DNA from: Patescibacteria group bacterium
GTDB taxonomy: Bacteria > Patescibacteriota > Minisyncoccia > Phycocordibacterales > Phycocordibacteraceae
Direction: 5' to 3'
Assembly: GCA_030837225.1 (NCBI GenBank)
Contig: JAUPKX010000005.1
Location: forward strand, 8,049 to 72,048
DNA length: 64,000 bases
The translations under genes were made by a program, and so were the position numbers. Under the pieces are notes generated by a model, which worked only from the letters and a program-made list of their open reading frames with translations, was not told where the DNA came from and ran no database searches. Positions within the stretch are counted from its first letter, which is position 1; the number at the start of each line of letters is the position of its first letter. Of the stretch, positions 17,449 through 35,537 are shown in pieces.

Positions 17449-19173
17449 GTGTTCGAGTATAATCCTTATATGGAGAATCCGGATCGCGTCACCTATTTTG
17501 CGGCCACTGATGCACGCGGAAAGCGCGTACCGTTTGGCATAAAGGCGAAAGACCGCTCGAAGCACATGTACGTCATCGGGAAGACGGGTATGGGTAAGTC
17601 GACAATGCTTGAGAACATGGCCATTCAGGACATACGGAACGGAGAGGGTATGGCCTTCATCGATCCGCACGGCAGCGCGGTTGATAAGCTGCTCGATTTC
17701 ATACCAGAAGATCGCGTGAAGGACGTTGTGTACTTCGCACCGTTCGATCTCGAAAACCCTATCGCATTCAACGTGATGGAGGACGTTGGCTATGACAAGC
17801 GACACCTCGTGGTGTCAGGGCTCATGGCTACCTTCAAGAAGATCTGGGTTGATGCGTGGTCGGCACGTATGGAGTACATCCTTACGAACACCTTGCTCGC
17901 GCTCCTTGAATATCCAGGCGCGACGTTGCTCGGGGTGAATCGTATGTACACCGACAAGAACTATCGCAAGAAGGTGGTTGAGAACATCAAGGATCCGGTT
18001 GTGAAGGACTTCTGGGTAAGCGAGTTCGCGAACTATGGAGACCGCTATACCCAGGAGGCGACACCGGCCATTCAGAACAAGATCGGCCAGTTCACCTCAA
18101 ACCCTCTTATTCGAAACATCATCGGACAGCCACACTCGTCCTTTGATATCCGTGACCTCATGGATAACCGAAAGATTCTCCTTGTGAATCTGTCGAAGGG
18201 ACTTGTGGGCGACACCAACATGCAGCTACTCGGCTCCATGCTCACCACGCGTATCTTCCTCGGTGCGATGAGTCGTGCGGACCTGCCGTCCCATGAGCTC
18301 GCAAAGACGCCAAGCTTCTATTTCTACGTGGACGAGTTCCAGAACTTCGCGAACGAGAGCTTCTCGGAGATTTTGTCCGAGGCTCGCAAGTACCAGTTGA
18401 GCCTCATTATCGCGCATCAGTATGTGGCACAAATGGAAGAAGAGGTGCAGGCAGCGGTGTTCGGCAACGTGGGAAGTACGGTGTCCTTCCGCGTGGGTCC
18501 ACTCGATGCGGAGCTTCTTGAGAAAGTATTCATGCCGAAGTTCCTGCAGGAGGATCTCGTTAATCTCGGATTCACGCAGATATACCTATCTCTCATGATC
18601 GATGGCGTTGGTTCGCAGCCATTCTCTGCGGTTACGATTCCTGGTATCGAACCGCCGCCACGTTCCTATCGTCTTGAAGTGCTCGAGAATTCACGCCAGC
18701 AGTTCGCAACCAAGCGTGCTGGTATCGAGAATGCCATCCTCACAGAACTCTCTCAGGCAGCTGAAGAAGCGGCCATGAATCACAAGGCAGCGTCTGCGGG
18801 TCCGGCCAATAAGAAGCCGGGCATGGGTGCGCCCCGTAGGGAAGACCGACCAGCTCCGAGAGTAGAGGCATCGCGCAGGGAAGAGCGTCCTGCACCCCGG
18901 CCTGAGCGAGTAGAGCGTCCAGCGCCTCCGCAAGCCGCAAAGACCGCAGACGATCTTAAGGCAATCTTGCGCGCAACTGTTGCGAACGTTGAGAAGAACA
19001 AGCAGAAGAAGCAGGGAGGGAAACAAGAATCCTTAAAGGATGCGCTCCGCACTACGATTGGGAACGTACCGCAGGCGCCAGTGCCACCTGCGCCTAAGAG
19101 TCCCGCTCAAGAACCGAAGCCCGTGTTCGAAGTCCCGGAAGAAACACTGCGCTCCCTTTTTAAAGATGTATAA
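17449..19173 (+). CDS. FtsK/HerA/VirD4-superfamily P-loop ATPase (type IV secretion coupling-protein-like). It has a long disordered Pro/Arg/Ala-rich C-terminal tail.
   Basis: Walker A 'GKTGMGKST', 'FIDPHG', Walker B 'FYFYVDEFQNFA'. The tail contains degenerate repeats 'REDRPAPRVE / REERPAPRPE / RVERPAPP'. Confidence 0.55.
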   Translation: MFEYNPYMENPDRVTYFAATDARGKRVPFGIKAKDRSKHMYVIGKTGMGKSTMLENMAIQDIRNGEGMAFIDPHGSAVDKLLDFIPEDRVKDVVYFAPFDLENPIAFNVMEDVGYDKRHLVVSGLMATFKKIWVDAWSARMEYILTNTLLALLEYPGATLLGVNRMYTDKNYRKKVVENIKDPVVKDFWVSEFANYGDRYTQEATPAIQNKIGQFTSNPLIRNIIGQPHSSFDIRDLMDNRKILLVNLSKGLVGDTNMQLLGSMLTTRIFLGAMSRADLPSHELAKTPSFYFYVDEFQNFANESFSEILSEARKYQLSLIIAHQYVAQMEEEVQAAVFGNVGSTVSFRVGPLDAELLEKVFMPKFLQEDLVNLGFTQIYLSLMIDGVGSQPFSAVTIPGIEPPPRSYRLEVLENSRQQFATKRAGIENAILTELSQAAEEAAMNHKAASAGPANKKPGMGAPRREDRPAPRVEASRREERPAPRPERVERPAPPQAAKTADDLKAILRATVANVEKNKQKKQGGKQESLKDALRTTIGNVPQAPVPPAPKSPAQEPKPVFEVPEETLRSLFKDV

Positions 19174-20488
19174 AACACTCGCCGTGTGTCTTGTTGGTGT
19201 AGGAGCACTCGCCCCGATGCCAACGCATGCGGCAGTAACCATAAGCGAGATTGCCTGGATGGGAACTTCCGTTGATAGCGGGAGTTTTTGCGAATGGGTA
19301 GAGCTCGCAAATGATGGTCTTGAATCAGTGTCTCTCTCGGGATGGACCCTGAAGACTACTGATGGCGGCATGTCAGTATCGCTTGCGGGCAGCATAGATG
19401 CTGGAGGTTTCTATCTAATAGAGCGCTCAACACCAACGGCATGTCCTGATCCAGTTCCAGGCATTAGTGCTGACCTGAGTCGTACGTTCGGTGGCGGTCT
19501 TTCAAATGCCGGAGAAGTATTGGTGCTTGCATCCGGAAGTACTGAGATGGATCGGATAGATGCATCCCTAGGATGGGAGGGATCGGTGGGTGGTGATAGT
19601 GCCCTTAAATACACAGCTCAGAGGAACGGGACAGCATGGGTTACAGCCGTAGCGACACCGCGGGCACTGAATGCAACTGAATCAGTTGCGGTAGTTACGA
19701 GCTCTTCAGAGACAACTACTTCCTCATCAAAGAAGACTGTCGGGAATCCCGTACCAACGCTCCTCATTGAAACGGGCGGAGATCGTGTTGTCTCTACGAA
19801 AGCGCATACGAAGTACCAACCGATTGTCTATGACAGTACTGGGCGCCATGTGCGGCAGCCGTATCTCACGTGGGCGTTCGGGGACGGCGGAAGACACGTA
19901 GGAACTAATGTTGAGCATGCGTATCGAGAACCTGGAGAATACCTCGTCGTTGTCCGTGCACAAGACCGCTACAGTCAGGGCACTGCATCGTTCATTGTTA
20001 CGGCAGACCCAGCAGACATACACATTACGGGTCTCTCTGAGAAGGGAGTAACTCTCAAGAATAGCGACACCCGTATTCTCGATCTTTCTCGATACCAGCT
20101 TGTATCAGGAAAGCAACAATTCAAGATTCCTGAAGACACCCAGATACTTCCGGGCCGCGCGGTTATCTTTCCGCCAGAGACAACCAGGCTTGCAACGACA
20201 ACATCCTCTATAAGTCTGTTGTATCCGAGTGGGGAGGTAGCGTCTGTCTATACGCATGCCACGACGACGCCAGCAGTGCTACCTAAGACCTCTGAGCCCA
20301 GTACTAATGTATTGAGAGCGGTCGAAGTACCAGCCAAAGCAGCGCCTCAGAATGATCAGACTATGATGGTCCCTGCCCAGACAATTGAACCTGTCGGGGC
20401 AGGGACGCTTTCTGCACTTCGAGCCTTTCTGGCGCCACTCTGGCCTCCTGTCCCGGAATATCGTAGGCTTTCCATAGTACTTCCATGA
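19166..20488 (+). CDS. Secreted protein with a signal peptide, two lamin-tail-domain-like modules and a central PKD domain. The start is taken at 'MYKTLAV', overlapping the upstream stop by 8 nt.
   Basis: Signal peptide 'MYKTLAVCLVGVGALAPMPTHA'. LTD-like 'ISEIAWMG...CEWVELANDG...SGWTLK'. PKD motif 'WAFGDGGRHVGTNVEHAYREPGEYLVVVRAQD'. Confidence 0.65.
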   Translation: MYKTLAVCLVGVGALAPMPTHAAVTISEIAWMGTSVDSGSFCEWVELANDGLESVSLSGWTLKTTDGGMSVSLAGSIDAGGFYLIERSTPTACPDPVPGISADLSRTFGGGLSNAGEVLVLASGSTEMDRIDASLGWEGSVGGDSALKYTAQRNGTAWVTAVATPRALNATESVAVVTSSSETTTSSSKKTVGNPVPTLLIETGGDRVVSTKAHTKYQPIVYDSTGRHVRQPYLTWAFGDGGRHVGTNVEHAYREPGEYLVVVRAQDRYSQGTASFIVTADPADIHITGLSEKGVTLKNSDTRILDLSRYQLVSGKQQFKIPEDTQILPGRAVIFPPETTRLATTTSSISLLYPSGEVASVYTHATTTPAVLPKTSEPSTNVLRAVEVPAKAAPQNDQTMMVPAQTIEPVGAGTLSALRAFLAPLWPPVPEYRRLSIVLP

Positions 20489-21927
20489 GCAAACTCATTC
20501 TCGTAACCGGGGGCGCCGGCTTTGTCGGTTCGCACCTCGTGAAGCGTCTCGTTGCTGAAGGGCACCGAGTTATTTCGCTTGATAACTATTTCGCGGGATC
20601 GAGAGAGACTCATGTAGCTGGTGTCGATTATCGCGAAGGGCACACTAAAGATATCGAATCTCACGTGCCTGAGTCGCCAGACCTCGTGTTCCACCTTGGA
20701 GAGTACTCGCGTGTAGAGAAGAGCTTCGAAGACATTGAGACAGTGTGGGACCTTAATAAGACAGGAACGTTTGCTGTCCTTGAGTTTGTGCGTCGTCGAG
20801 GATCTAAGATCGTCTATGCCGGTTCCTCTACGAAGTTCGGTGACGATGGCGCGGGGCGCGATCAGAGTCCGTATGCATGGGCCAAGGCTACCAATACCGA
20901 GCTCGTAAAGAACTACTCATCGTGGTTCGGTATTCCGTACGCTATTACGTATTTCTATAACGTGTACGGACCGGGAGAGCGTGCCGGAAGTTTTGGAACA
21001 GTAATCGAGATTTTCCGCCAGAACTATTTGTCGGGACGACCTTTTACTATTACTGCGCCAGGAACGCAGCGACGCAACTTTACGCACGTAGAAGACATTG
21101 TTGAAGGCCTAGTGCTCGTTGGAGAGAAAGGAGAAGGTGACGAGTATGGTCTAGGTGACGAGCGTGCGTATGCGATTAAGGAGGTTGCAGAGCTTTTCGG
21201 TAGCTCGATAATTATGCTCCCGGAACGTCCCGGGAATCGTATGGGATCGAGTCTTGAGACTGCAAAAGCGCGTGCTCTTGGTTGGGAACCAAAGCGTCAT
21301 CTCGCAGACTATATCAAGAGTATTAAGGAGAGCGGTGAGATACGCATAAAGAAAGAAGCTCGAGTGCTTGTCTTCACTACAACCTTCTATCCAGTTGAGG
21401 GTCCTGCAGAAGAAGCGCTCTGCGAACTTATGAAGCAGTTGCCCGACGTACAGTTCGATATCGTAACGACCCTTTACACAAAGAAAGCAAAGGACGTGCA
21501 GTGTCCTGCAGCCAACGCAACGCTCCATCGTGTTGGGTGGGGAACACCGTTTGATAAGCTGCTTCTTCCGTTCCTGGGCGGAAGCATTGCCCGCAGGCTT
21601 GCACGGGAACACGAGTACCTATTTTCCTGGTCTGTCATGGCAAGCTACGGTACGCTCGCAGCACTTTCGGTGCGCAGGGACCGTAAGCTTCCGCTTTTGG
21701 TAACACTTGCCGACCAGTCTCTCGCTTTCCATGAGCGTCTCTTCCTCAGACTCGTTATAGGCAGTGTCGATCAGGTATATGCTTCCAAGCCCGAACAAGG
21801 ACAAAGGTTGGGATCGCTAGAGTCCCGTATGCGCGCACGCAGGACCTTGGGTGAGGGAGATGCGTTCGCGAACCAGATTCGTTTTGCTTACTCCCAGATC
21901 TTAAATAAGCGAGAGCGGAAGATATGA
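20485..21927 (+). CDS. NAD-dependent sugar-nucleotide epimerase/dehydratase, about 300 aa. It is fused to a roughly 180-aa C-terminal domain resembling the N-terminal half of a GT-B (GT4) glycosyltransferase.
   Basis: 'LVTGGAGFVGSHLVKRLVAEGHRVISLDNYFAGS' is UDP-xylose-synthase/4-epimerase-like. C-terminal 'RVLVFTTTFYPVEGPAEEA...' is paralogous to the N-terminus of the next gene, 'RVLIFSLNYYPRFIGGAEVA...'. Confidence 0.65.
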   Translation: MSKLILVTGGAGFVGSHLVKRLVAEGHRVISLDNYFAGSRETHVAGVDYREGHTKDIESHVPESPDLVFHLGEYSRVEKSFEDIETVWDLNKTGTFAVLEFVRRRGSKIVYAGSSTKFGDDGAGRDQSPYAWAKATNTELVKNYSSWFGIPYAITYFYNVYGPGERAGSFGTVIEIFRQNYLSGRPFTITAPGTQRRNFTHVEDIVEGLVLVGEKGEGDEYGLGDERAYAIKEVAELFGSSIIMLPERPGNRMGSSLETAKARALGWEPKRHLADYIKSIKESGEIRIKKEARVLVFTTTFYPVEGPAEEALCELMKQLPDVQFDIVTTLYTKKAKDVQCPAANATLHRVGWGTPFDKLLLPFLGGSIARRLAREHEYLFSWSVMASYGTLAALSVRRDRKLPLLVTLADQSLAFHERLFLRLVIGSVDQVYASKPEQGQRLGSLESRMRARRTLGEGDAFANQIRFAYSQILNKRERKI

Positions 21928-23132
21928 GACGAGTTCTGATTTTTTCGCTCAACTACTACCCGCGCTTCATTGGGGGAGCAGAGGTTGCCATTAAGGAGAT
22001 AACGGATCGTATCTCTCCAGAAGAGATTGAGTTCCATATGGTAACGCTCCGTATGGACTCCGAACTTCCAAAGACCGAGCAGATTGGGAATGTGATTGTG
22101 CATCGTATCGGACCAACCAAAAAGAACCCGAGCATCGCTGACCTACAGAAAGCACCACTCCATTTCAATAAACACCTTTATCAGTTCCTTGCTGCATGGG
22201 AGGCGCAGAGGCTCCATGCGAAGTTTCGCTTTGATGGAGTGTGGGCGATGATGGCTCATTCATGTGGTATTCCAGCTGGAATCTTCAAGACCTTGAATCC
22301 TAAGGTTACGTACCTGCTCACCCTTCAAGAAGGCGATCCACCTGAGCATATCGAACGTCTCGCAAAGCCGGTTTGGCCGCTCTTCAAGCAAGGATTTACG
22401 AGCGCAGATCATCTCCAGCCTATCTCGAACTTTCTTCTTGCATGGGGGAGACGTATGGGATTTGCGGGAGACGCTGCAGTTATACCGAATGCCGTAGATA
22501 CGGCAAAGTTCATGCAGTCCTATAGTCCTGAGGAAGTTTCGGAAATGAAACAGAATCTTTCAAAGAAGACTGACGACGTCTTTCTTGTAACAACCTCACG
22601 CCTCGTGCACAAGAACGCTGTTGATGATGTTATTCGTGCACTGCCACTCCTTCCTGAGAATGTCTCATTCCTTATCTATGGCATTGGTCCGGACGAAGAG
22701 AAGCTTCAGGTCCTTGCGAAGGAACTCAATGTATCTGAACGAACTCGCTTCATGGGGCAGATTGCGCATGCAGAAATGCCGCTGATGCTCGCTGCATGCG
22801 ATATCTTCATCCGTCCATCGCGGTCTGAGGGAATGGGTAATTCTTTTGTTGAAGCGATGGCCGCTGGGCTCCCCGTTATCGCAACACAAGAAGGTGGTAT
22901 TGCAGACTTCCTCTATGACGAAACTCGCAATCCGGACAAAGAGACTACTGGCTGGGCCGTTGATAGCGATAGTCCTGAACAGATAGCGGCAGCGGTAACT
23001 GATATTCTGACGCGCCCTGAGAAGGTCTCGAAGGTTCGTGACACCGCCCTTACGATGGTGCAGAAGCGCTACGACTGGGATACGGTCGCTAAAGATATGA
23101 AAGCCCTGTTTGTACGCATGTTCGCGGGTTAG
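21924..23132 (+). CDS. GT4-family glycosyltransferase (GT-B fold).
   Basis: N-terminal 'YYPRFIGGAEV' and C-terminal 'SRSEGMGNSFVEAMAAGLPVIATQEGGIADFL' (E-x7-E region). Confidence 0.75.
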   Translation: MRRVLIFSLNYYPRFIGGAEVAIKEITDRISPEEIEFHMVTLRMDSELPKTEQIGNVIVHRIGPTKKNPSIADLQKAPLHFNKHLYQFLAAWEAQRLHAKFRFDGVWAMMAHSCGIPAGIFKTLNPKVTYLLTLQEGDPPEHIERLAKPVWPLFKQGFTSADHLQPISNFLLAWGRRMGFAGDAAVIPNAVDTAKFMQSYSPEEVSEMKQNLSKKTDDVFLVTTSRLVHKNAVDDVIRALPLLPENVSFLIYGIGPDEEKLQVLAKELNVSERTRFMGQIAHAEMPLMLAACDIFIRPSRSEGMGNSFVEAMAAGLPVIATQEGGIADFLYDETRNPDKETTGWAVDSDSPEQIAAAVTDILTRPEKVSKVRDTALTMVQKRYDWDTVAKDMKALFVRMFAG

Positions 23133-23133
23133 A

Positions 23134-24243
23134 ATGGCCTCTATGCGGCTCCTCATAGCCACCCCGTTATATCCACCCGATCCTGGGGGTCCTGCTACCT
23201 ATGCAAAGATACTTGAGCAGGAATTGCCCGGTCGGGGGATCCAGGTAGCGCTTCTAAAGTTCAGCGATGTGCGACGCTATCCAAAGATAGTGAGACATAT
23301 CGCGTATTTCATTCTCCTTGTACGTGCAGGAAAAGACTCTGATGCAATTCTCGCACTCGATCCGGTCTCAACGGGTTTCCCGGCAATGCTCGCAGCGAGA
23401 CTACTCAAGAAACCCTTCTTCGTGAAAGTAGTAGGGGACTATGCATGGGAACAAGGAACGCAGCGCTTCGGTATACGCGTCTCGCTCGACGAGTTCGTAC
23501 GCACGAAGCATGTACCGTTCTCAGTAGAGATTTTTAGAATGATACAAACATACGTTGCGCAATCAGCACGGACGGTTATTGTGCCGAGCGAATACCTTCG
23601 TGGCATCGTATCGCGCTGGGGTATCGATACGGAGTGTGTAACCGTTATCTACAACGCCATGCAAGAAGAGGAGGAAGGGGTACTTCCTCCTTCGGTGGAA
23701 GGTCTAACGCGTCCGCGCATTGTTTCTGTTGGAAGGCTCGTGCCATGGAAGGGGATGCCAGGACTCATCGATGCAATGACAACGGTACAAGAAGAGTTCC
23801 CGGATGCGGTGCTTCTTATTGCTGGAGACGGTCCCGATCTCGACGCACTCGAACGCTTCAGTCACGCGCGGCTCAAGAAGGGAGGGTTGTTACTCGGTCC
23901 GCTTCCGCACCCTGATACGCTTGCACTCATACGGGACGCTGACATCTTTGTCCTTAACTCAACATACGAAGGACTCTCGCATCTACTTATAGAGGCACTC
24001 GCGCTCGGCAAGCCGGTTATCGCAACCAATGTTGGAGGAAATCCTGAGCTTATCGAGGACGGGAAGAATGGCCTTTTGGTCCCTGTGGGGGACCGTACCG
24101 CTCTCGCTGAGGCGATCGTGCACGTGCTTAAGAACCAAAGTCACAGAGACCTTCTTGCGAATACTGCGAAAGAATCAGCGAAGCGATTCTCAACCGCAGC
24201 CATGGCAGATGCAACCGCTGCTACACTTACGCGTTACGTATGA
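23134..24243 (+). CDS. GT4-family glycosyltransferase.
   Basis: 'LLIATPLYPPDPGGPATYA' N-terminus and 'EGLSHLLIEALALGKPVIATNVGGNPELI' C-terminus. The listed ORF begins at 23110, so an alternative start exists. Confidence 0.75.
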   Translation: MASMRLLIATPLYPPDPGGPATYAKILEQELPGRGIQVALLKFSDVRRYPKIVRHIAYFILLVRAGKDSDAILALDPVSTGFPAMLAARLLKKPFFVKVVGDYAWEQGTQRFGIRVSLDEFVRTKHVPFSVEIFRMIQTYVAQSARTVIVPSEYLRGIVSRWGIDTECVTVIYNAMQEEEEGVLPPSVEGLTRPRIVSVGRLVPWKGMPGLIDAMTTVQEEFPDAVLLIAGDGPDLDALERFSHARLKKGGLLLGPLPHPDTLALIRDADIFVLNSTYEGLSHLLIEALALGKPVIATNVGGNPELIEDGKNGLLVPVGDRTALAEAIVHVLKNQSHRDLLANTAKESAKRFSTAAMADATAATLTRYV

Positions 24244-25364
24244 AGGTCCTCTTTATATCAAACGACCCAGCACTCTTTGTTGAAGGAAGCGAGGTACGTG
24301 CCCGCATGCGTTCCTACGCAGAAGCGATAGGGGAGTTGTCGATTATTAGCCGCGCACCAAAGCCCCAAGAGATTCATGAGGGCTCGCTTCATCTCTATGG
24401 CGTACGTACAGGCAAGCTCTTCTCGCCCTTTACCCTCGCGTCCCGAGCGCGCACGTTAATTCTGAAGCAGGGTATAGAGATTGTTTCAGCGCAAGATCCG
24501 TTCGAGCACGGATGGGCAGCGCTTCGGGCAGTACGAGGAACGTCGGCTCGACTACACGTACAGGTACACACCGACTTCTTGTCTCCGTGGTTCCGAAGCT
24601 CGCTTGGTGTCTCGTCGTTTCCGATGCGTGTCTTGAATCGGATTCGCGTGCATATTGCAGACCATGTGATTCCTCGAGCGGCAGGGGTTCGCGCGGTATC
24701 AAAGCGAATTCAGTCTTCACTTTTGAAGCGGTACGCATCTCGCATCAAGGAGGTCCGTGTTGTACCGATTGCAATCCCGAGCGATGTACAAGAAGAGGTA
24801 CCGCTTCCTCCTGCATCGTTTACGTTTAAACTTCTGGCTGTTGGAAGACTAGAATCCGAGAAGCGTCTTCCCGATGTGCTTAAAGCTCTTCATCATATCC
24901 ATCCCCAGTATCCAAGTATTGGTCTGTATATAGCTGGATCGGGCAGGGAGGAAGCACCTCTCAAGAATATGGTTCGAGAGCTCGGTCTCACTGAACGTGT
25001 GGTATTCCTTGGTGCTCGTACGGACGCACAGGGACTCATGCGAAACGCGCATGCATTCATTCAGGCGAGCGCATACGAAGGATACGGCAGGACACTTGTC
25101 GAAGCGGCGCTTGCGCGCGTGCCAATCATCACGACCGACGTGGGCGTTGTGGGAGAAATATTCGAAGGGTATCGAGACGTGCTTTCGGTGCCTCCTGGTG
25201 ATTCTGCTGCAATTGCGGTGCAGATCGTGGGACTCATAGAAGACGAATCCGCTCGACACTCTCTTGTTATTAATGCCGAGATCGCAGCGCGGAAGCACCT
25301 TGCCTCGAGTGAAGAGACCGTACAGGCACTATGCGACGATCTGAGAAGGACGCTTGCCCCCTGA
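24240..25364 (+). CDS. GT4-family glycosyltransferase.
   Basis: 'EGYGRTLVEAALARVPIITTDVGVVGEIF' C-terminal motif. There is a 4-nt overlap with the upstream gene. Confidence 0.75.
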   Translation: MKVLFISNDPALFVEGSEVRARMRSYAEAIGELSIISRAPKPQEIHEGSLHLYGVRTGKLFSPFTLASRARTLILKQGIEIVSAQDPFEHGWAALRAVRGTSARLHVQVHTDFLSPWFRSSLGVSSFPMRVLNRIRVHIADHVIPRAAGVRAVSKRIQSSLLKRYASRIKEVRVVPIAIPSDVQEEVPLPPASFTFKLLAVGRLESEKRLPDVLKALHHIHPQYPSIGLYIAGSGREEAPLKNMVRELGLTERVVFLGARTDAQGLMRNAHAFIQASAYEGYGRTLVEAALARVPIITTDVGVVGEIFEGYRDVLSVPPGDSAAIAVQIVGLIEDESARHSLVINAEIAARKHLASSEETVQALCDDLRRTLAP

Positions 25365-25398
25365 TACCCCAGGAAGAGATTCAGGGTTATCCTAGAGT

Positions 25399-26367
25399 AT
25401 GGTCAATATCGTAACGATAGGCGGCGGAACGGGTACGTTCGTGGTCCTTTCAGGCCTCAGGAGGCTTCCAGAGGTCTCTCTTTCGGCTATCGTCACAGCC
25501 GCGGACGACGGGGGCTCTACGGGGCACCTACGAGACGCATACGGGTTTCTTCCTGCGGGGGATGCCCGCCAGGCCCTTGTGGCGCTTGCAGAGGACGGGA
25601 ACGTCCTGCGAGACCTCTTTGCGTACCGGTTCGAGAAGAGCGAGGTTGCTGGGCATAATCTCGGGAACCTGTTCTTAACTGCCCTCACTGATCTTCTCGG
25701 TTCAGACGCAGCAGCGCTTGAAGAAGCATCACGGATTTTGCGAGTAGCAGGGAAGGTAATCATGGCAACTGACACACCTGCCACCCTTAAGGCTACGCTC
25801 GAAGATGGAAGCGTCGTTATGAATGAGCGAGAGATTGATGAGCGTATTGCGGGACGTTCTCGTATTGCTGAGCTCGCACTCGAGACATCGCTGTCGGTGT
25901 CGCTTGCTGCACGTACTGCCATAGAAGAGGCCGATCTAATTATTCTTGGACCAGGAGATCTCTACACGTCGAGCATTGCTGCACTCTTGCCAAGCGGTAT
26001 GAAGGAGACGATTGCGGGCTCAAAGGCTCGTCTTGTATATGTCACGAACCTGTTTACGAAGACGGGCCAGACTAATGGCTATAGCGTTAGCGATCATGTA
26101 CGCGAGATTGCGCGGTACGCCGGGCGCGAACCGGACGTTATATTCTTGAATGATGGTAGGCTATCGCAAGAGCTTCTTGATCGCTATGCCGAGGAAGAGG
26201 AGTATCCGCCCGTTGACGATTCCATTGATTTAGATGCGCGCGTGCAGCGCATGCCACTTGTTTCGGTCTATCAGGTTCCTGCCGTTCCGGGAGACCCGCT
26301 CCTTCGCTCCCTGGTTCGCCATGACCCGGCAAAGCTTGCTGCTGCCATTAGCACTCTTTTTGTATGA
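25399..26367 (+). CDS. YvcK / CofD-like family protein (gluconeogenesis factor / 2-phospho-L-lactate transferase-like, UPF0052).
   Basis: 'IVTIGGGTGTFVVLSGL...AADDGGSTGHLRD' and 'NLGNLFL' are family hallmarks. Confidence 0.7.
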   Translation: MVNIVTIGGGTGTFVVLSGLRRLPEVSLSAIVTAADDGGSTGHLRDAYGFLPAGDARQALVALAEDGNVLRDLFAYRFEKSEVAGHNLGNLFLTALTDLLGSDAAALEEASRILRVAGKVIMATDTPATLKATLEDGSVVMNEREIDERIAGRSRIAELALETSLSVSLAARTAIEEADLIILGPGDLYTSSIAALLPSGMKETIAGSKARLVYVTNLFTKTGQTNGYSVSDHVREIARYAGREPDVIFLNDGRLSQELLDRYAEEEEYPPVDDSIDLDARVQRMPLVSVYQVPAVPGDPLLRSLVRHDPAKLAAAISTLFV

Positions 26368-26882
26368 GGTACTATCTCGATTTCGATCGCACGCTCTTCG
26401 ATACGGATTCGTTCTATGAGTATCTCGCAAACCGGCCGGGTCTTGAAAGGACTAGAGGGCTTCCTGCGGTAGAGCTTGTGGAAGCTCTTAATCAGATGGC
26501 GATGGACAGCACGCTTACATTCGCTCCTGGCGAACTCTCGCAGTTCTTGTTTCAGGATGCGGCAAGCTTTCTACGCGAGAAGGAGAATGCGGTTACGATT
26601 ATCACCTATGGGAATGCGACGTTCCAGGAGATAAAGGTGAAGAGTGCACTTACGAGTATACCCCGTATGTCGGTTATGTATACGAATGAAGTCCGGAAGG
26701 GTATCTATCTTGCGCCGCACACCCACCTTCATGCGGGCGCGGTGCTCGCTGACGACGCTGTTGTTGAGCTTGAGATTCTTGCGGAGAAGTGTCCTTCCTT
26801 AACACTGTACGAAATGCGACGTGACGGCGGGGAAGGGGATGGACGCTGGCCGGTTATCAGGTCACTCGCAGAACTACCATGA
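26364..26882 (+). CDS. Small HAD-like hydrolase/phosphatase (tentative).
   Basis: N-terminal 'YLDFDRTLFDT' resembles HAD motif I (DxDxT). Confidence 0.4.
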   Translation: MRYYLDFDRTLFDTDSFYEYLANRPGLERTRGLPAVELVEALNQMAMDSTLTFAPGELSQFLFQDAASFLREKENAVTIITYGNATFQEIKVKSALTSIPRMSVMYTNEVRKGIYLAPHTHLHAGAVLADDAVVELEILAEKCPSLTLYEMRRDGGEGDGRWPVIRSLAELP

Positions 26883-27916
26883 GAGTCCTCTTCGTAACGC
26901 AGGCACTTGATCTGGATGAGCCAGTTCTGAGCACGTATCACGAGTGGGTCTCTGCGCTCGCTAACCGTGTCGATCATGTCGAAGCGATCTGCCTTAAGGA
27001 GGGAAGGCACGAACTCCCAAAGAACGTGAGAGTTCATTCGTTAGGAAAAGAGGATGGAAGGCAGTCGAAGATGCAGTATGCACTACGCTTTTTCTTGCTC
27101 TCGTGGAAGCTACGCAATGAGTATGACGTAGTGTTCGTACATATGAATCAGGAATATATCCTCATTTCTGGATGGCTATGGAAACTTCTAGGGAAACGGG
27201 TGTATCTCTGGAGAAACCATTACGCTGGTTCATTCCTCACAGACGTTACATCTTTCTTCTGTACGAAGATTTTTTGTACCTCGAGATACTCTTATACTGC
27301 GCGGTATAAGAAGACAGTGTTCATGCCGGTTGGTGTTGATGTTGGGCGGTTTATCGCTCGTGCTGGTGTTGTTCGCAAACCACAGTCAATTCTTTTCTTC
27401 TCGCGCATGTCCCCGTCTAAGCGACCCGAGATTCTCCTTGAGGTGCTCGCGTTACTTAAAGAAAAGGATGTGTCATTTACGGCATCCTTTTATGGAAGTC
27501 CGCTTCCGGAAGACGTGCCGTATTACGAGGGTCTAAAAAGGTTAGCGGAAGAAAAGGATCTTAACGATGTCGTTTCGTTCTTTTCGGGTGTTGTGAACAA
27601 AGAGGCGCCGGACGTGTTCCAGGCGCACGAAATATTCGTAAACTGTTCTCGGTCCGGCATGTTCGACAAGGTGTTGTTTGAAGCTGCGGCGTCGGGGTGC
27701 TTAGTACTTGCGGTGAGCGAGGACCTCGGAAGGGAGGCAGGGTCCGAGTTCATCTTTGATGAGGCTGATCCTACAGACCTTGCTGAAAAGATTGAGAAAT
27801 GGCTCGCGATAGACCTGGTAGGAGGTACGGAAGCCCTTGAGACCTTGATGGCTATGGCGAAGCGCCATAGTTCGGGAACACTCTTTGATACGCTCTACGC
27901 CGAGATGGGCACTTAG
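26879..27916 (+). CDS. Glycosyltransferase, GT-B fold (GT4/GT1-like).
   Basis: The domain layout and the C-terminal 'FEAAASGCLVLAVSEDLG' region are consistent with a GT-B nucleotide-sugar-binding half. Confidence 0.55.
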   Translation: MRVLFVTQALDLDEPVLSTYHEWVSALANRVDHVEAICLKEGRHELPKNVRVHSLGKEDGRQSKMQYALRFFLLSWKLRNEYDVVFVHMNQEYILISGWLWKLLGKRVYLWRNHYAGSFLTDVTSFFCTKIFCTSRYSYTARYKKTVFMPVGVDVGRFIARAGVVRKPQSILFFSRMSPSKRPEILLEVLALLKEKDVSFTASFYGSPLPEDVPYYEGLKRLAEEKDLNDVVSFFSGVVNKEAPDVFQAHEIFVNCSRSGMFDKVLFEAAASGCLVLAVSEDLGREAGSEFIFDEADPTDLAEKIEKWLAIDLVGGTEALETLMAMAKRHSSGTLFDTLYAEMGT

Positions 27917-27977
27917 GCCCTCCTGCATCCTTGCTTTCCCAACGCGAGTTATAAGCATATGCTAGTGTCATACTGCT

Positions 27978-30035
27978 ATGAATACTCCTAAAATCGTCAT
28001 TACCGGCGGCCTCGGCTTCATTTTCTCCTACGTCACAGAGTACTTCGTTCGGAAGGGCTGGCAGGTGGTGGTCATCGATAATCTGTCTGCGGGGGCTAAT
28101 CCGGACATTATCGACGGCTCCTTTGTCCACCATAACGTCCATACGAGCAATCCGGACATCGTACCTCTCATCATAAAGGAGAACCCTGACTATCTAATCC
28201 ACGCAGCGGCGATCACGGACGTCGATTACTCGACGCTCGAGCCGCATCGTACGATGACCAAGAATACGCTGGGTACGCTGCATGCATTTGAGGCTGCGCG
28301 CAGACTTCCGAACCTCAAAAAGTTCATGTACGTGGCGACTGACGAGATATACGGAGAGTGCGACCGTCCCATGACGGAAGAGGACCTTATTCAACCGAGA
28401 AATCCGTACTCGTGTTCGAAGGCGGTAGGATCCCTGGTGCGGGTCGCGTACGACAACACCTTTCCGATACTAAAGGGTAAGACCGTCGAGACGAGAATGT
28501 GTAACATCTTTGGTGCACGCCAGGATACGCGCAAGATCATGCCGCAGATAAAGAAAAGCCTCGAGGAAGGGTACTCTATCCCACTGCATCAAGACGGGAC
28601 GGGATACCGAGAGTATTTGTATGTAAAGAACGTCGCACCAGCAGTCGACCTCATATTGCGCGAGGGGACCGGCGCGTACAACATCTCGCTCGGGAACGGA
28701 CTTACAGTCCGCGAGCTCATACAGAGAGCAGAGACGCTCACGGGAAAAAAGGTCACGACGCACGAGGCAAATCGTCCGGGTATGGACATGCAGTATCAGG
28801 CTGATGCAACGCGCCTTCTAGATCTCGGCTGGAAGCCGCTCTACACCTTCGACGAAGGACTCAAGGAATATCTCACCGAGCATTCAGAGGAGCAGCAGAA
28901 GAAAACTCTTATTATCGGTACGAACGATCTGCTCATGGCAGGTGCGCAACGACTGGCTATAGATCAGTTGAACGCGGTAGACCGGACTGTGTTCGATGTT
29001 CACCTCGTCGTACTCATGGAGTTTCGGGGTCAGGCAACCTTCGATGATCTGATACCCGACGACGTAACAGTTCACCGCATCCGATACTCAGGACTTGCGG
29101 ATATCGCTGCGTGGCAGCGCCTATATCGAGTCCTTTCTCGCGTACGTCCTGACATCGTTAAGACTGCGACGTTCTTCAGTAACATCACCTTCCTTATTTT
29201 GAAGGTGTTCTTCGGCTATGCAGTTATCGCGGCAGAGCATAATACTGTCCGCGCGAAGCCCACATGGCAGCGTTTCGTTGATCGACTCCTCCTTCCAAGG
29301 GCGTTTACGGTAGTGGCCGATTCGAAGGCGGTGGTTGATTTCGTGAGTTCAACCGAAGGCATCGCACCAGAGAACTTCACCATTATTTACAACGGTGTCG
29401 ATCTTGATGCGGTCCGCTCGAGCAAGGAGCTCTATGCAAGAGATCGCGCAAGCATCCGTGCCGAATACGATATTCCTTCTGACGCGTTTGTTATCTTCAC
29501 TGCGTCAAGGTTGGTCCACCAGAAGAACCATCACCTCATGCTCGAAGGCTTCGCTAAGGTGCGCGATCGAGAGAAGACATACCTCGTTATCGCTGGAGGA
29601 GGGAAGTATGCTGAAGAACTAAAAGTGCTTGCAGAGGAACGAAATATCAGTGATCGTGTCCTCTTCCTTGGTGAGCAGAAGAATCTTCATCGTCTCTATG
29701 CGACTGCTGATATGTTCTTACTCACCTCGAGACACGAGGGTTTCTGCATCGCGGCCATGGAAGGACTTGCGTTCGGTTTGCCGCTCGTGTCCACTCGCGT
29801 GGCAGGAGTGTCCGAATATCTACGGGATGGGGAGAATGGCTTCTTTATCGAGGCAACACCCGAGGACATTGCAGCGAAGATCGAACGAGTTGTTGATTTC
29901 TCTAGCGAAGAGCGCTCAGGCTTTTCGAGGGCTGCAGAGGAGACCGCAGAAAACTACAGCCTTGCGAAGTATGCTGATGAATTCACATCGCTCCTAAAGC
30001 GCATTGTGGGCGATATGGACTATTCGAATGAGTAA
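27978..30035 (+). CDS. Bifunctional fusion of an N-terminal NAD-dependent epimerase/dehydratase (about aa 1-310) and a C-terminal complete GT4 glycosyltransferase (about aa 315-685).
   Basis: 'IVITGGLGFIFSYVTEYFVRKGWQVVVIDNLSAG' and 'YSCSKAVGSL' are SDR epimerase motifs. 'SRHEGFCIAAMEGLAFGLPLVSTRVAGVSEYL' is the GT4 E-x7-E motif. Confidence 0.7.
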   Translation: MNTPKIVITGGLGFIFSYVTEYFVRKGWQVVVIDNLSAGANPDIIDGSFVHHNVHTSNPDIVPLIIKENPDYLIHAAAITDVDYSTLEPHRTMTKNTLGTLHAFEAARRLPNLKKFMYVATDEIYGECDRPMTEEDLIQPRNPYSCSKAVGSLVRVAYDNTFPILKGKTVETRMCNIFGARQDTRKIMPQIKKSLEEGYSIPLHQDGTGYREYLYVKNVAPAVDLILREGTGAYNISLGNGLTVRELIQRAETLTGKKVTTHEANRPGMDMQYQADATRLLDLGWKPLYTFDEGLKEYLTEHSEEQQKKTLIIGTNDLLMAGAQRLAIDQLNAVDRTVFDVHLVVLMEFRGQATFDDLIPDDVTVHRIRYSGLADIAAWQRLYRVLSRVRPDIVKTATFFSNITFLILKVFFGYAVIAAEHNTVRAKPTWQRFVDRLLLPRAFTVVADSKAVVDFVSSTEGIAPENFTIIYNGVDLDAVRSSKELYARDRASIRAEYDIPSDAFVIFTASRLVHQKNHHLMLEGFAKVRDREKTYLVIAGGGKYAEELKVLAEERNISDRVLFLGEQKNLHRLYATADMFLLTSRHEGFCIAAMEGLAFGLPLVSTRVAGVSEYLRDGENGFFIEATPEDIAAKIERVVDFSSEERSGFSRAAEETAENYSLAKYADEFTSLLKRIVGDMDYSNE

Positions 30036-30813
30036 GCAGTACCGACCGGTGCGCTCAGTACTTCTCGCGATCCTTGCAATCGTATCTCATCTTGTGCCCG
30101 CGAGGCCTCGTATGACTGTGCTGGTATATCACGGGATTACGTCGGGTACGGATTTCTTCGCAGTTAAGCCAAAGGAGTTTGAACGCCAGCTTGAACACCT
30201 CACGAAGCGATACACGGTTGTTCCACTTGAACGCGCATTCCGGCATGCGGCGGGCGAGCCCGCAACGGAAGACAGTGTCGCACTGACGTTCGATGATGGG
30301 TACAAGAACTTCTTAACTGATGCGGTGCCGCTTCTCTGTGCGCATAACGCCCCGGCAACTGTCTTCGTACTCTCAGGTACGCCTGGCGCAGCAGACATCG
30401 GCAACGACGCTCCACTCCTTGCTACTGAGGACTTTGCGTCCGTCGCCTCCTCAACGATAGGGGTTGGTTCGCATGGAGAGACACACAAAAAACTTGCAAA
30501 GCTGTCCTACGAGGAAGCGCTCCGTGAGATGCGAGATTCAAAGCGCGTCATCGAGACTCAGTATGGGGTACCAGTGCGTTACCTTGCGTATCCGAAGGGG
30601 AGCTATAACGCTCAGACTATGCAAGCAGCGGAGCGTGCAGGCTACAAGGGTGCGGTTTCGGTAGTCGAGCGTAGCGTTAAGGTGGGAGATCTGGCGTACG
30701 CCCTGCCGCGCGTGCAGATCGACGCATCGACCTCACTCGCCGATTTCAAGGCCAAGCTCACGCCCGCCGCTGACTGGTATTATTGGCTCTGGAGTACATT
30801 TAAACGACATTAA
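30004..30813 (+). CDS. Polysaccharide deacetylase (NodB homology domain). An alternative start at 'MSKQY' lies near 30028.
   Basis: 'LTFDDGYKNFLTDAVPLL...ATVFV' and 'HGETH' NodB-type motifs. Confidence 0.7.
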   Translation: MWAIWTIRMSKQYRPVRSVLLAILAIVSHLVPARPRMTVLVYHGITSGTDFFAVKPKEFERQLEHLTKRYTVVPLERAFRHAAGEPATEDSVALTFDDGYKNFLTDAVPLLCAHNAPATVFVLSGTPGAADIGNDAPLLATEDFASVASSTIGVGSHGETHKKLAKLSYEEALREMRDSKRVIETQYGVPVRYLAYPKGSYNAQTMQAAERAGYKGAVSVVERSVKVGDLAYALPRVQIDASTSLADFKAKLTPAADWYYWLWSTFKRH

Positions 30814-30828
30814 GCGAGATACGGTATC

Positions 30829-31488
30829 ATGTACCCAATGTTCATCGGCGTATGGAAACAGCTTGCAGCGGGGAAGACGCCGCTCCGGGCACTCATGAAT
30901 CAGGCGCTTTCTGCGCATACACTCTCGACCGGAGTAGTGGTTGATCTCGGTGGCGGTAAAAATCCAAGCTACCTCAACTTCCTAAAAGGAGTAAAAGAAG
31001 CGACGTTACAGACGATCGATATGCAGCACGGGGTAGGCGAAGCACGGCTCATCGACTTCGAGAAGGATATGCTCCCTTACGTAGACAACAGTGTCGACCA
31101 GGTGCTCATGCTGAACGTGCTCGAGCATATCTATAATCATGAGTTCTTTGTCCAAGAGACACGTCGTATCCTGAAGGACGGTTCGACTGTCATAGGATTC
31201 GTCCCGTTCCTCATCAATTATCATGCGGACCCGCATGATTATTTCCGCTACACGCACGAGGCTCTGAAGCGCATATTTGCCGACACAGGATTCACCGAGA
31301 GTCGTATCGAGACGATCGGTGGCGGCCCTATGCTTCTGAATTTCAATACTATCGCGTCCTTCGCTCCACGCCTCGTTACGACGATACTTTGGCCCTTCTA
31401 CTACGCGCTCGATTGCTCCCTGCTTCGTATAAAGCCAGGCTTCAAGAAGCGGTTCCCGCTCGGGTACCTGTTCGTACTTACGAAGTAG
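30829..31488 (+). CDS. Class I SAM-dependent methyltransferase.
   Basis: 'VVDLGGGKNP' motif I and 'VLMLNVLEHI' motif are typical of Methyltransf_11/23. Confidence 0.65.
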   Translation: MYPMFIGVWKQLAAGKTPLRALMNQALSAHTLSTGVVVDLGGGKNPSYLNFLKGVKEATLQTIDMQHGVGEARLIDFEKDMLPYVDNSVDQVLMLNVLEHIYNHEFFVQETRRILKDGSTVIGFVPFLINYHADPHDYFRYTHEALKRIFADTGFTESRIETIGGGPMLLNFNTIASFAPRLVTTILWPFYYALDCSLLRIKPGFKKRFPLGYLFVLTK

Positions 31489-31492
31489 CACC

Positions 31493-32299
31493 ATGGAAAA
31501 GATACAGGCAACGGTCGGCATCCTGACCTTCAATTCAGGAAATACGCTCGCCCGCGCGCTAGAGTCTGTGCAGAATTTTGCTGATATCGTCATCTGCGAT
31601 GGAGGGTCTGCTGATGACACGCTCGACATCGCGGCGTCCTTTGGTGCTCGCGTAATAACGCAAGACAGAAACTTCCAAAACGGGAACGGCGTGTTGCGGG
31701 ACTATGCAGGAGTCCGTAACCAATGCCTCGATACTGCGGTCTTCGATTGGTTTCTGTATATCGATTCGGACGAGCAAGCGACGCCCGAGCTTGTTGCGGA
31801 GATTTGCAGGATTACTGAACAGAGAGAGCCCGTATTCCTTGTCTACAATGTCTCGCCTCGTATCGTGCTCGATGGTGTTCGGATACAACACTCATCGAAT
31901 TACCCTGGCTGGCAGAACCGTTTCTTCAATAAGAGAAGTGGTGCTCGGTTCCGTAAGGCTGTGCACGAGCGCATCGATTACGACAAAGCGGAGTATCCGG
32001 CAGGCTTTCTAAAGGGGCACTGGCTCTACTTCATCTCAAACAATCAGGACGGGGTGAAGAACAGGAAGTATGCGTATATGGACGCGACGCATCATGCTAC
32101 GAAGAAGTCTTCCGTGTTCCTTGTTCTCGTAGGGAAGCGGCTCATTGTGCTCCTGAAGGCAGTGCTGAAGATCCTTTATAACCGCGTGCGCTATGGTAAC
32201 AAGGCTAATCTTCCTCTCGTGCTCGAGTTCACGCGCGTGCAGTACCATATCTATTTCTTACAAGCGCTTGCAAGACACTTCTTTAACCGAACATCATGA
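31493..32299 (+). CDS. GT2-family glycosyltransferase.
   Basis: 'VGILTFNSGNTLARALESV...IVICDGGSADDTLDIA' and the 'DSDE' DxD region. Confidence 0.7.
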   Translation: MEKIQATVGILTFNSGNTLARALESVQNFADIVICDGGSADDTLDIAASFGARVITQDRNFQNGNGVLRDYAGVRNQCLDTAVFDWFLYIDSDEQATPELVAEICRITEQREPVFLVYNVSPRIVLDGVRIQHSSNYPGWQNRFFNKRSGARFRKAVHERIDYDKAEYPAGFLKGHWLYFISNNQDGVKNRKYAYMDATHHATKKSSVFLVLVGKRLIVLLKAVLKILYNRVRYGNKANLPLVLEFTRVQYHIYFLQALARHFFNRTS

Positions 32300-33396
32300 G
32301 GATCGCCTACCTCGCTAACGTGCGGATACCAACGGAGCGTGCCTACGGCCTGCAGATCATGAAGACCTGCGAGGCGCTCGCGAACGCAGGTGCAGATGTG
32401 ACGCTTGTGACACCGTTTCGCCGGAACACGCTTACAGATGAAGCTTTCTCGTATTACAACGTTTCCCCTGTTTTCAGGCTACTTACATTGCGCACGCCGG
32501 ACTTGGTGAGCTTCGGACCTCTCGGCTTCTTATTATCGACCTTCTTTTTCGCCGAAGCAGCGCGATGGAAGAAGGAGTTCTTCGAAGCTGATCTCGTCTA
32601 CTCACGCGATGCTCTCGTGCTTATACAGTACGTGCTCCTGCAAAAGCCGTTCGTGTTCGAAGCGCATGCGAAGCCTTCGTTCGCGTCTCGCGTTGTAGCC
32701 AAAAAGGCCCGAAATGTCGTGGTGATCTCCAACGGTCTACGCCGTGCATATGAAGCGGCAGGAATCCCTCCTGAGCGCATTACCGTTGCGCCGGATGCTG
32801 TCGATGAGCATCTATTCGACGGGGTGCCGGACCGTTTTGCGGCGAGAATAGCCCTCAAGCTTCCTTCGGAAGCCAGTATCGTAGTGTACGCAGGCCATCT
32901 TTATCCTCGTAAGGGAGCGGTAACGCTGGCTCGAGCAGCGACACACCTTTCTGGGATTGAGATTGTATTTGTCGGAGGCACATCGACTGATATAGCAGCC
33001 TTCAAGAAGGAGTGGGGAGTCCAGAAGAACATACGTATCGTTGGGCACGTGCCGCACGCGCAAGTAGCGTGGTATTTGCGTGCTGCTGACGTGCTTGTGC
33101 TGCCGAATTCTGGTAAGGACACGGATTCTGCGGAGTTCACCTCACCCATGAAGCTCTTCGAGTACATGGCATCCGGCACGCCGATCGTCGCATCAGATGT
33201 GCTCTCCTTGAGAGAGGTACTCAATGACGGAACCGCTATGCTCGTATCGCCTGACGATGCTCAGGCGCTTGCTGAAGCAGTGTCAGGGGCGCTTTCGAAT
33301 CGGGAGGCTATGGGGGAAAAAGCAGAAAAAGCTCTCGCGCGGGTCAAAGACTATACGTGGACCGAGCGCGCCAAAAGAATCCTTACGACGTGTTAG
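32296..33396 (+). CDS. GT4-family glycosyltransferase.
   Basis: GT-B organisation with the C-terminal 'FTSPMKLFEYMASGTPIVASDV' motif. Confidence 0.75.
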   Translation: MRIAYLANVRIPTERAYGLQIMKTCEALANAGADVTLVTPFRRNTLTDEAFSYYNVSPVFRLLTLRTPDLVSFGPLGFLLSTFFFAEAARWKKEFFEADLVYSRDALVLIQYVLLQKPFVFEAHAKPSFASRVVAKKARNVVVISNGLRRAYEAAGIPPERITVAPDAVDEHLFDGVPDRFAARIALKLPSEASIVVYAGHLYPRKGAVTLARAATHLSGIEIVFVGGTSTDIAAFKKEWGVQKNIRIVGHVPHAQVAWYLRAADVLVLPNSGKDTDSAEFTSPMKLFEYMASGTPIVASDVLSLREVLNDGTAMLVSPDDAQALAEAVSGALSNREAMGEKAEKALARVKDYTWTERAKRILTTC

Positions 33397-34672: not shown

Positions 34673-34745
34673 GACTTCAGTACTCTTATGGTAACACCGC
34701 CCGTGTATTCATAGGTTTCAGTAATGCTCTGGTATAGTACGCGTC

Positions 34746-35537
34746 ATGGAAAGCTCCTATAATCGCACTGAGACCGCGCGCCGGTATGTGGAGTCGCGTT
34801 TCCCGAATGCTTCACCGGCTGAACGGGAGAAGATAATAAAGGACTGGGAGACGAAGCCGAAGCAGTCAGTAGGTATCGCTGCGGATTTCGAAGTGCGCGC
34901 TCATTCACTTAAAGATGCTCGGGTGCTCGATGCCGGATCAGGGAACGGAGGTATCGGTATTGCGTTCGCTGCACGTGGTGCCCTCGTCGAGGGTGTCGAC
35001 ATCGAGGAAGAGCTTGTCGAGGTTGCGCGTTCAGAAGCGCTGGCCGCTAACTCGTCTGCGGCATTCCGCTGGTACGAAGGGACCACGCTCCCGTTTACGG
35101 ACCATACATTTGATGCTGTGCTCTCCGTGAGTGTTATAGAGCATGTGAGTGATCCGGTGCGCTATTTCAGCGAGATCCTGCGAGTCGTAAAACCCGGAGG
35201 TGTACTGTATCTCGCGTTCCCGAATCGCTTGGTACCAGTGGAGACGCACACTGGCCTCTTTGGTCTCTCGTATCTGCCTGCACCACTCGCTCGGGTATAC
35301 GCGCGTGCAACCGGACACAATCCGATCGAGGATAATAATCTCCATTTCTATACGTACTGGGATATGCGTCGCTTGCTCGCGGCCGCTAGTGTTGAAGGGC
35401 GCGCTTGGAAGATACGTGAAGAAGAAGGGAAGAGTACGAGCGTCCGGGTGCGCTTCCTGAAGCATGTACTTGGCGTATTCGGTATTCCACACCAGGCTCT
35501 CTTGCCGCACGTGATGCTTCTAGTCGAAGCGACGTAG
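34746..35537 (+). CDS. Class I SAM-dependent methyltransferase.
   Basis: 'VLDAGSGNGGIGIAFAARGALVEGVDI' motif I/II and 'LSVSVIEHV'. Confidence 0.65.
   Translation: MESSYNRTETARRYVESRFPNASPAEREKIIKDWETKPKQSVGIAADFEVRAHSLKDARVLDAGSGNGGIGIAFAARGALVEGVDIEEELVEVARSEALAANSSAAFRWYEGTTLPFTDHTFDAVLSVSVIEHVSDPVRYFSEILRVVKPGGVLYLAFPNRLVPVETHTGLFGLSYLPAPLARVYARATGHNPIEDNNLHFYTYWDMRRLLAAASVEGRAWKIREEEGKSTSVRVRFLKHVLGVFGIPHQALLPHVMLLVEAT

Follow-up and report, generated by a model that had tools for sequence, protein, structure and literature searches.

An epimerase-like protein with a glycosyltransferase half-domain and a fusion of a dehydratase-like enzyme with a glycosyltransferase in a glycan gene cluster of a Patescibacteria group bacterium

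In the glycosylation of streptococcal serine-rich-repeat adhesins by GtfA/GtfB (Gtf1/Gtf2), a catalytic glycosyltransferase of family GT4 is paired with a non-catalytic paralogue of the GT-B type, to which the acceptor binds. Half GT-B domains can also be encoded separately, as in Alg13/Alg14 and in bacterial split MurG-like transferases (e.g., Cps14F/G). Sugar-nucleotide enzymes of the short-chain dehydrogenase/reductase (SDR) type are found in larger proteins such as ArnA (formyltransferase and SDR decarboxylase), plant RHM (dehydratase and epimerase/reductase), and engineered GalE-galactosyltransferase fusions. Here, we describe a glycan gene cluster within a 64,000-nucleotide stretch of DNA (the window; contig JAUPKX010000005.1, positions 8,049 to 72,048, of GenBank assembly GCA_030837225.1, a Patescibacteria group bacterium), in which one SDR carries a tail related to half of a GT4 and another is fused to a complete GT4. 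A previous reading of the window, made from the DNA letters without database searches (the sequence-only reading), had drawn attention to three open reading frames (ORFs), and all were verified at their positions in the window: 20485-21927 (480 amino acids [aa]), 21924-23132 (402 aa), and 27978-30035 (685 aa).

By analogy, the closest known design appears to be GtfA/GtfB, where, as in this cluster, a catalytic GT4 lies beside a derived non-catalytic paralogue that keeps the fold and not the donor-side apparatus. The PDB entries 5e9t and 5e9u, which we take to be GtfA/GtfB, both turned up in this analysis. Unlike in GtfA/GtfB, the paralogue described here is an N-terminal half only and is attached covalently to an SDR, and the organism and glycan differ. 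Alg13/Alg14 would be the closest precedent for an isolated GT-B half, given that the N-terminal Rossmann half is a separate folding unit in both cases. However, Alg13/Alg14 and Cps14F/G are GT1/GT28-type halves with a matching C-half, whereas the half-domain reported here belongs to the GT4 family and neighbors a complete GT4. The covalent joining of an SDR sugar-nucleotide domain to the next enzyme of the pathway is shared with ArnA, RHM, and the GalE fusions, although the natural partner in this cluster is a GT4 or a GT4 half-domain. A full-text literature search found no published description of an SDR-GT4 or SDR-half-GT4 architecture.

The tail of the 480-aa protein and its partner GT4

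Pfam matched the SDR of the 480-aa protein across residues 5 to 242 (PF01370 at 5 to 221). When the family profile was compared with PDB, GalE (4zrm) and UXS1 tied as best matches and aligned over positions 4 to 283 only, which places the end of the domain at about residue 283. From about residue 286, the 195-residue tail had no Pfam match at E values up to 10, and neither the tail nor its profile matched a PDB entry by sequence. Its identity emerged only from a fold search and profile-profile comparison.

That this tail is paralogous to the acceptor-side half of the adjacent GT4, as had been proposed, was borne out by three types of comparison. BLASTP aligned it with the N-terminal half of the neighbor at 29% identity over 146 aa (E value, 2e-7). 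Using hhalign, the tail matched a four-sequence GT4 profile with 97.3% probability (E value, 1.7e-11) and a 61-sequence profile of the neighbor's GT4 subfamily with 100% probability (E value, 1.7e-39; 157 columns, tail positions 6 to 167 against GT4 positions 1 to 181). A hidden Markov model (HMM) of the tail, run against 46 selected ORFs of the window that included all large ones, had the adjacent GT4 as its sole match (E value, 1.6e-11), leaving the other six GT4-type proteins unmatched.

A joint alignment of the two families had 38 columns with strong conservation on both sides, and the residue was the same in 27 of these, including P303, G306, A308-E309, D357-K358, W382, M385-A386-S387, T407-L408, and N463 of the 480-aa protein. 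The tail departs from the GT4 at the second Gly of the GG loop (G18 replaced by P307) and at the QEG motif (replaced by ADQ). Its last ∼28 residues make up a long helix, whose G-x-G-D/N-x-x-R-F-x-Y pattern is invariant (F461 nearly so), and profile-profile alignment detected no counterpart of this helix in the GT4. AlphaFold2 (AF2) modeled the tail with a predicted local distance difference test score (pLDDT) of 88, and the tail has the characteristics of a GT4 N-terminal Rossmann domain (PF13439/PF13579-like). As the protein ends at residue 480 with no PF00534 match, it has neither the donor-binding C-domain nor the EX7E motif, which in the 402-aa GT4 is located in SEGMGNSFVEAM, and the tail is therefore unable to act alone as a transferase. 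In this it is unlike the retaining GT4s PimB', MshA, WbnH, and SPS, and its identity to any solved GT4 is 10 to 15%. The nearest solved relatives of the GT4s themselves, PimB' and BshA, matched over the C-domain alone.

Proteins of the 480-aa type formed more than 120 clusters at 90% identity, each of about 480 aa, 63 to 93% identical, and aligned with full-length coverage. Over 120 homologues, mean identity was 62.5% for the tail versus 74% for the SDR, and about 50 tail positions were near-invariant. This degree of conservation indicates that the tail is under strong purifying selection and kept as a conserved domain. It is a domain that no domain library names and that appears to have been copied from the neighboring enzyme.

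The SDR domain has the invariant NAD-binding motif GGAGFVG, and S114-S115-T116, Y130, and K134, which make up the Ser/Thr...YxxxK arrangement, are likewise invariant across 66 homologues. The register in question is occupied by S-A-T in GalE, T-D-E in RmlB, and T-S-E in UXS. The 480-aa protein reads SSTKFG where RmlB has its Thr-Asp-Glu triad, and alignment by motif places S114-S115-T116 in the register of the GalE S-A-T, a placement that favors an epimerase-like SDR over one resembling a dehydratase or a decarboxylase. Scores do not separate GalE from UXS; the protein obtained 67 bits against TIGR01179 (GalE; cutoff, 262.3) and 93.1 bits against TIGR01181. Present database labels of such proteins read only "epimerase/dehydratase" or "UDP-glucose 4-epimerase."

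To follow the distribution of the architecture, one genome per GTDB species was scanned, and 143 genomes matched the 480-aa type. Identities fell to 45%, showing that the homologues are not nearly clonal. The suggestion that such fusions are uncommon thus fails for this protein, although it holds for the 685-aa type described below, which was found in about nine clusters at 90% identity. The locus counts that follow cover the best 80 of the 143 genomes. Nearly all of these are titled Patescibacteria (Paceibacterota/Paceibacteria, Kaiser-, Yonath-, Nomura-, Azam-, and Uhrbacteria), and many bear the pipeline label "Saccharibacteria." SDR and tail share a single frame in 79 of the 80, the exception being truncated by a contig end. 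A GT4 of the neighbor's subfamily directly follows the SDR-tail gene in 51 loci. The spacing is −5 to +13 nucleotides (nt) in 50 of these loci, whereas L027 (related loci are given L numbers) has 194 nt. The GT4 is fused in frame to the SDR-tail in four further loci. In another 16, one or two inserted genes intervene and it lies 0.6 to 2.7 kb downstream; three loci lack it, and six have too little DNA to judge. The GT4 is therefore adjacent to the tail, fused to it, or within 3 kb of it in 71 of 74 usable loci. This SDR-tail architecture is widespread in Paceibacteria yet unannotated.

Variants of the partnership were also identified. Fusions of SDR, tail, and GT4 (about 876 aa) occur in at least four species and on two additional contigs with the same synteny. 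In other lineages, the partner GT4 forms a single protein of ∼750 aa with the GT4 that comes next in the cluster. A divergent 520-aa SDR-tail protein again precedes such a GT4 in a different genomic context (L012). In L008, from a Pacebacteria metagenome-assembled genome, the SDR is 50% identical to that of the window and tail-less, ending at the equivalent of residue 283, and it overlaps the start of a GT4 that is 44% identical to the 402-aa GT4.

Several candidates for related half-domains were rejected. Free-standing tails of 160 to 290 aa were found almost entirely on contigs of only about 1 kb and were therefore taken as gene fragments, and the sole stand-alone tail on a long contig (P0355, L013) is split merely by a run of N in the scaffold. 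The 172-aa ORF at 26364-26882 has an N-terminal HAD-type D-x-D-x-T motif and no Pfam or NCBIfam match, and it was discarded as a half-glycosyltransferase. A 179-aa free GT4 N-half in L008 was not accepted as a relative of the tail (hhalign E value, 0.44). This last protein (3596-4135 of L008) has a weak PF13439 match and overlaps a 364-aa protein without domain matches, the two genes occupying 2505-4135 (−). Being unrelated to the tail, it may be a second, independent half-glycosyltransferase.

The 685-aa fusion of a dehydratase-like domain and a GT4

The ORF at 27978-30035 had been read as a complete SDR followed in frame by a complete GT4, and Pfam agreed on both counts, with PF16363/PF01370 for the first and PF13439/PF00534 for the second. 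The SDR match covers residues 6 to 297 (PF16363 at 8 to 297 and PF01370 at 6 to 236; E value, 1.6e-40). Its best family match was TIGR01181, dTDP-glucose 4,6-dehydratase, at 169.6 bits (cutoff, 365.1), and PDB entry 2hun matched with an E value of 2.9e-42. Thr-Asp-Glu and YxxxK residues define the 4,6-dehydratases, as known from RmlB. The segment ATDEIYGE, which holds the Thr-Asp-Glu triad (T121-D122-E123), is invariant in eight orthologues of the 685-aa protein, as are Y144 and K148, completing the Ser/Thr...YxxxK arrangement with T121. These motifs point to a 6-deoxy-4-keto intermediate as the probable product of the domain. The likeness to RmlB (TIGR01181; PDB 2hun and 1g1a) thus extends to fold, motifs, and best matches. 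Unlike RmlB, the domain scores below the equivalog cutoff, has a GxxGxxF NAD motif, and is fused to a GT4, and no RmlA, RmlC, or RmlD was found near the gene.

Eight clusters share this architecture at 64 to 73% identity to the window protein; seven of these are full length (663 to 688 aa), whereas the eighth, a fragment of 589 aa, spans 85% of the query. When seven clusters were aligned with the window protein, TDE, YSxSK, and EX7E (HEGFCIAAMEG) were invariant, as was GGLGFIFS wherever the N terminus was present (one aligned sequence did not have it). The linker between the two domains varies in sequence, and in length by one or two residues.

A search of related genomes for split versions, which the sequence-only reading had proposed as a check, was successful. 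Besides the pair of tail-less SDR and GT4 described above, L008 encodes dehydratase and GT4 at the same cluster position as two overlapping genes, a 571-aa methyltransferase-SDR and then a separate 376-aa GT4 with an ATGA overlap. Residues 2 to 299 of the window protein are 71% identical to the SDR part of the former, and residues 308 to 673 are 57% identical to the latter. At the junction, ...GLKEYLGS (stop) and MTDSKIRVLIGANDL in L008 match ...GLKEYLTEHSEEQQKKTLIIGTNDL in the window, with a linker of eight residues standing where L008 has its ATGA stop/start overlap. Other arrangements were found in L010, where this dehydratase domain, at 65% identity, shares a protein with a PMT_2 GT-C and a DegT-type aminotransferase is encoded next, and in L005, where a GT4 that is 38% identical to the GT4 domain of the fusion stands alone with no dehydratase. 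Because it is variously joined to a neighboring gene (GT4, methyltransferase, or GT-C) or absent, the dehydratase is, on this comparison of loci, a mobile accessory module that has apparently been welded repeatedly to the adjoining gene.

Possible roles of the tail and competing explanations

We lean toward the reading that both proteins are genuine multi-domain enzymes, the tail serving as a docking or acceptor-binding module and the 685-aa protein representing two overlapping genes that were welded together. The tail sits exactly between the SDR and the GT4 and could therefore have arisen by partial tandem duplication of the 5′ half of the GT4 gene; most simply, this would have happened once, at the SDR/GT4 junction, with selection retaining the copy across the class. 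As a non-catalytic module, the tail might tether the SDR to the GT4 that is its partner or, at the membrane, to a lipid-linked acceptor shared with that GT4, and the modified nucleoside diphosphate (NDP)-sugar would thereby be made where it is used. The in-frame SDR-tail-GT4 fusions in at least four species would speak, indirectly, for a physical complex of the two partners. Channeling of the sugar directly to transfer, as the sequence-only reading proposed, is conjectural, and so is its suggestion of a rare sugar. In the 685-aa protein, an RmlB-like dehydratase is fused to a full retaining-type GT4; this fusion would have formed when two neighboring genes, which were translationally coupled and are still separate in relatives, lost their stop/start overlap.

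Several observations weigh against this interpretation. The tail is not indispensable, because L008 has a tail-less SDR together with its GT4. The triple fusions of SDR, tail, and GT4 could be 1-nt assembly errors at the ATGA overlap, yet they recur in at least four species and on the two further contigs. Neither SDR reaches the curated equivalog cutoff for GalE or for RmlB, so that their chemistry is read from motifs only. The NAD motif of the 685-aa SDR, GGLGFIF (residues 10 to 16, in 27978-28010), has Phe in place of the third Gly; the same replacement is present in seven of the eight orthologues, namely, those covering the region, and is unusual for extended SDRs. Finally, no 4-reductase, 3,5-epimerase, or aminotransferase that would act on the 4-keto-6-deoxy product was found within the window.

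A bolder and more doubtful extension is that the SDR-tail protein and the GT4 make up a class-wide, hitherto unannotated machine of three Rossmann domains in Paceibacteria, in which the half pseudo-glycosyltransferase heterodimerizes with the GT4 or alternates with its N-domain on the single donor-binding domain. If true, this machine would link NDP-sugar epimerization with the transfer step or allow a single donor domain to serve two acceptor specificities. A glycosylation metabolon would then be assembled in a novel manner, and this in organisms with an almost wholly uncharacterized envelope chemistry.

Alternatively, the tail could be an intramolecular regulatory or ligand-binding domain that binds a small ligand (acceptor, product, or lipid) or the membrane and gates or localizes the SDR without contacting the GT4. 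The full-length AF2 model (predicted template modeling score, 0.82) suggests a fixed arrangement of SDR and tail, the second, more divergent SDR type (520 aa) bears the same tail, and GT-B N-domains commonly bind acceptors and membranes. We nevertheless consider this unlikely, as it leaves unexplained both the adjacency or fusion to the source GT4 in nearly all usable loci and the recurrent in-frame fusion to that GT4.

The tail could also be the acceptor half of a second GT-B enzyme that is completed in trans, comparable to the recruitment of Alg13 by Alg14. The donor-binding half would then be encoded separately, or the neighboring GT4 would lend its C-domain, which swaps between two N-domains. 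The retention of most of the conserved N-domain columns fits such a split enzyme, as do the constant proximity of the GT4 and the occurrence of free GT4 N-half proteins in related clusters (L008, 3596-4135). However, no glycosyltransferase consisting of a C-half only was found among the window proteins, where all GT1-type proteins come with an N-terminal region of their own; the tail carries other residues in place of the QEG motif and of the second Gly in the GG loop; and Pfam gave no Alg14-type match at E values up to 10. Taken together, this makes a split glycosyltransferase quite improbable.

The sequence-only reading had called the tail a relic. On this view, an earlier fusion of SDR and GT4 would have lost the C-domain, and what is left would be decaying and functionless. 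The missing catalytic C-domain and Pfam match, and the one relative (L008) with no tail at all, are compatible with decay, but the 62.5% identity and the near-invariant positions over 120 homologues, the intact frame in 79 of 80 species, and the confident predicted fold contradict this explanation. Least credible of all, to the point of being nearly dismissed, is the idea that one or both fusions are separate genes run together by a mistake in sequencing or assembly: neighboring genes of the cluster do overlap by 4 nt, so that a single indel would fuse them, and the apparent split in L013 shows that a scaffold gap can mislead, but the same frames recur in independent assemblies (the identical 480-aa product in four independent Sequence Read Archive assemblies) and in dozens of species, linker length varies while both flanking domains stay in frame, and the junction DNA is clean, with no homopolymer runs or ambiguous bases. 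The claim that both fusions are genuine and in frame therefore stands.

The envelopes of the candidate phyla radiation (CPR)/Patescibacteria are almost uncharacterized, and the cells depend on surface contact with hosts. The SDR-tail/GT4 pair is among the most conserved pieces of the glycan cluster, which lies beside the murein ligase genes murC and murD. Recognizing the tail as a selected paralogue of a GT4 N-domain corrects the annotation of these proteins and yields a concrete prediction of their partner, the downstream GT4. It also supplies a naturally occurring case in which a sugar-nucleotide enzyme bears a half pseudo-glycosyltransferase, and the variable dehydratase fusions illustrate how adjacent overlapping genes may be welded repeatedly in small genomes.

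The surrounding cluster and other features of the window

The coordinates of the two fusions and of the cluster around them are given in Table 1. On the 5′ side, the gene order is murD, murC, rsmI, a HicAB pair, a TrwB-like ATPase, and a protein with LTD and PKD domains, whose stop codon overlaps the start of the 480-aa gene. The stop codon of the 480-aa gene in turn overlaps the start of the 402-aa GT4 gene as ATGA. The order of TrwB-like ATPase, LTD/PKD protein, and SDR-tail protein is also found in L001, L005, L006, L007, L009, and L013, and the core that follows the 402-aa GT4 gene (23110 to 27916) has an order in common with L002, L008, and L009. A polyprenyl glycosylphosphotransferase is encoded at 37-1440. 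The distal part of the cluster holds a polysaccharide deacetylase, methyltransferases, a GT2, a GT4, a Wzx-type flippase (−), a PMT_2 GT-C (−), a polyprenyl-phosphate sugar synthase of family GT2 (−), GtrA (−), and a Wzy_C/O-antigen-ligase-like protein with tetratricopeptide repeats, after which come murB and secA. As predicted from these genes, the content of the cluster is that of a lipid-carrier-based pathway for an envelope glycopolymer.

Table 1. Coordinates, strand, and assignment of features of the glycan cluster in the window
Feature	Position	Strand	Assignment or evidence
TrwB/VirD4-like ATPase and LTD+PKD protein (upstream neighbors)	17449..20488	+	Pfam; order conserved in relatives
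SDR domain of 480-aa protein (aa 1-285)	20485..21339	+	Extended short-chain dehydrogenase, GalE-like by motif; PF01370, E value 5.7e-43
Tail of 480-aa protein (aa 286-480; stop codon 21925-21927)	21340..21927	+	Paralogue of the N-terminal Rossmann domain of the GT4, non-catalytic, with a C-terminal helix
Complete GT4 (402 aa), probable source family and conserved partner of the tail	21924..23132	+	PF13439 and PF00534
Rest of conserved core: two GT4s, YvcK/CofD-like protein, 172-aa protein, GT1-type transferase	23110..27916	+	Pfam, NCBIfam
RmlB-like NDP-hexose 4,6-dehydratase domain (aa 1-300) of 685-aa fusion	27978..28877	+	TIGR01181, PDB 2hun, motifs
Inter-domain linker of 685-aa fusion (about aa 301-307)	28878..28898	+	Orthologue alignment; sequence and length vary
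Complete GT4 domain of 685-aa fusion (aa 308-685)	28899..30035	+	PF13439 at 322-477, PF00534 at 490-655
Variable distal part of cluster	30004..41056	mixed	Pfam, NCBIfam

Further features of the cluster and its surroundings were recorded. A HicB-like antitoxin and a HicA toxin are encoded at 16961-17419 (+), between rsmI and the TrwB-like ATPase; their Pfam assignments were made via the identical locus L001. The TrwB-like ATPase lies near the SDR-tail/GT4 pair even in the rearranged locus L012. Amid the glycosyltransferases, a YvcK/CofD-like protein (TIGR01826, 271 bits) and the 172-aa D-x-D-x-T protein are encoded at 25399-26882 (+), and both occupy the same position in L002, L008, and L009.

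Outside the cluster, the 16S rRNA gene is interrupted (7183-10730, +), with Rfam matches at 7183-7763 and 8361-9460. The insertion between these matches encodes a LAGLIDADG_2 endonuclease (ORF 7826-8482), and a group I intron at 9923-10730 encodes a LAGLIDADG_3 protein (9978-10706); tRNA-Ile(GAT) follows at 11119-11194. Interrupted rRNA genes are typical of CPR. At the other end of the window, a giant ORF of at least 4,440 codons runs from ∼50680 (+) to beyond 64000, past the window end, and the minus-strand ORFs at 50.8 to 54 kb are its shadows. Its product, probably a giant surface protein, has a high content of G, T, S, and A and GNVGIGTTxP-like motifs that recur along the sequence.

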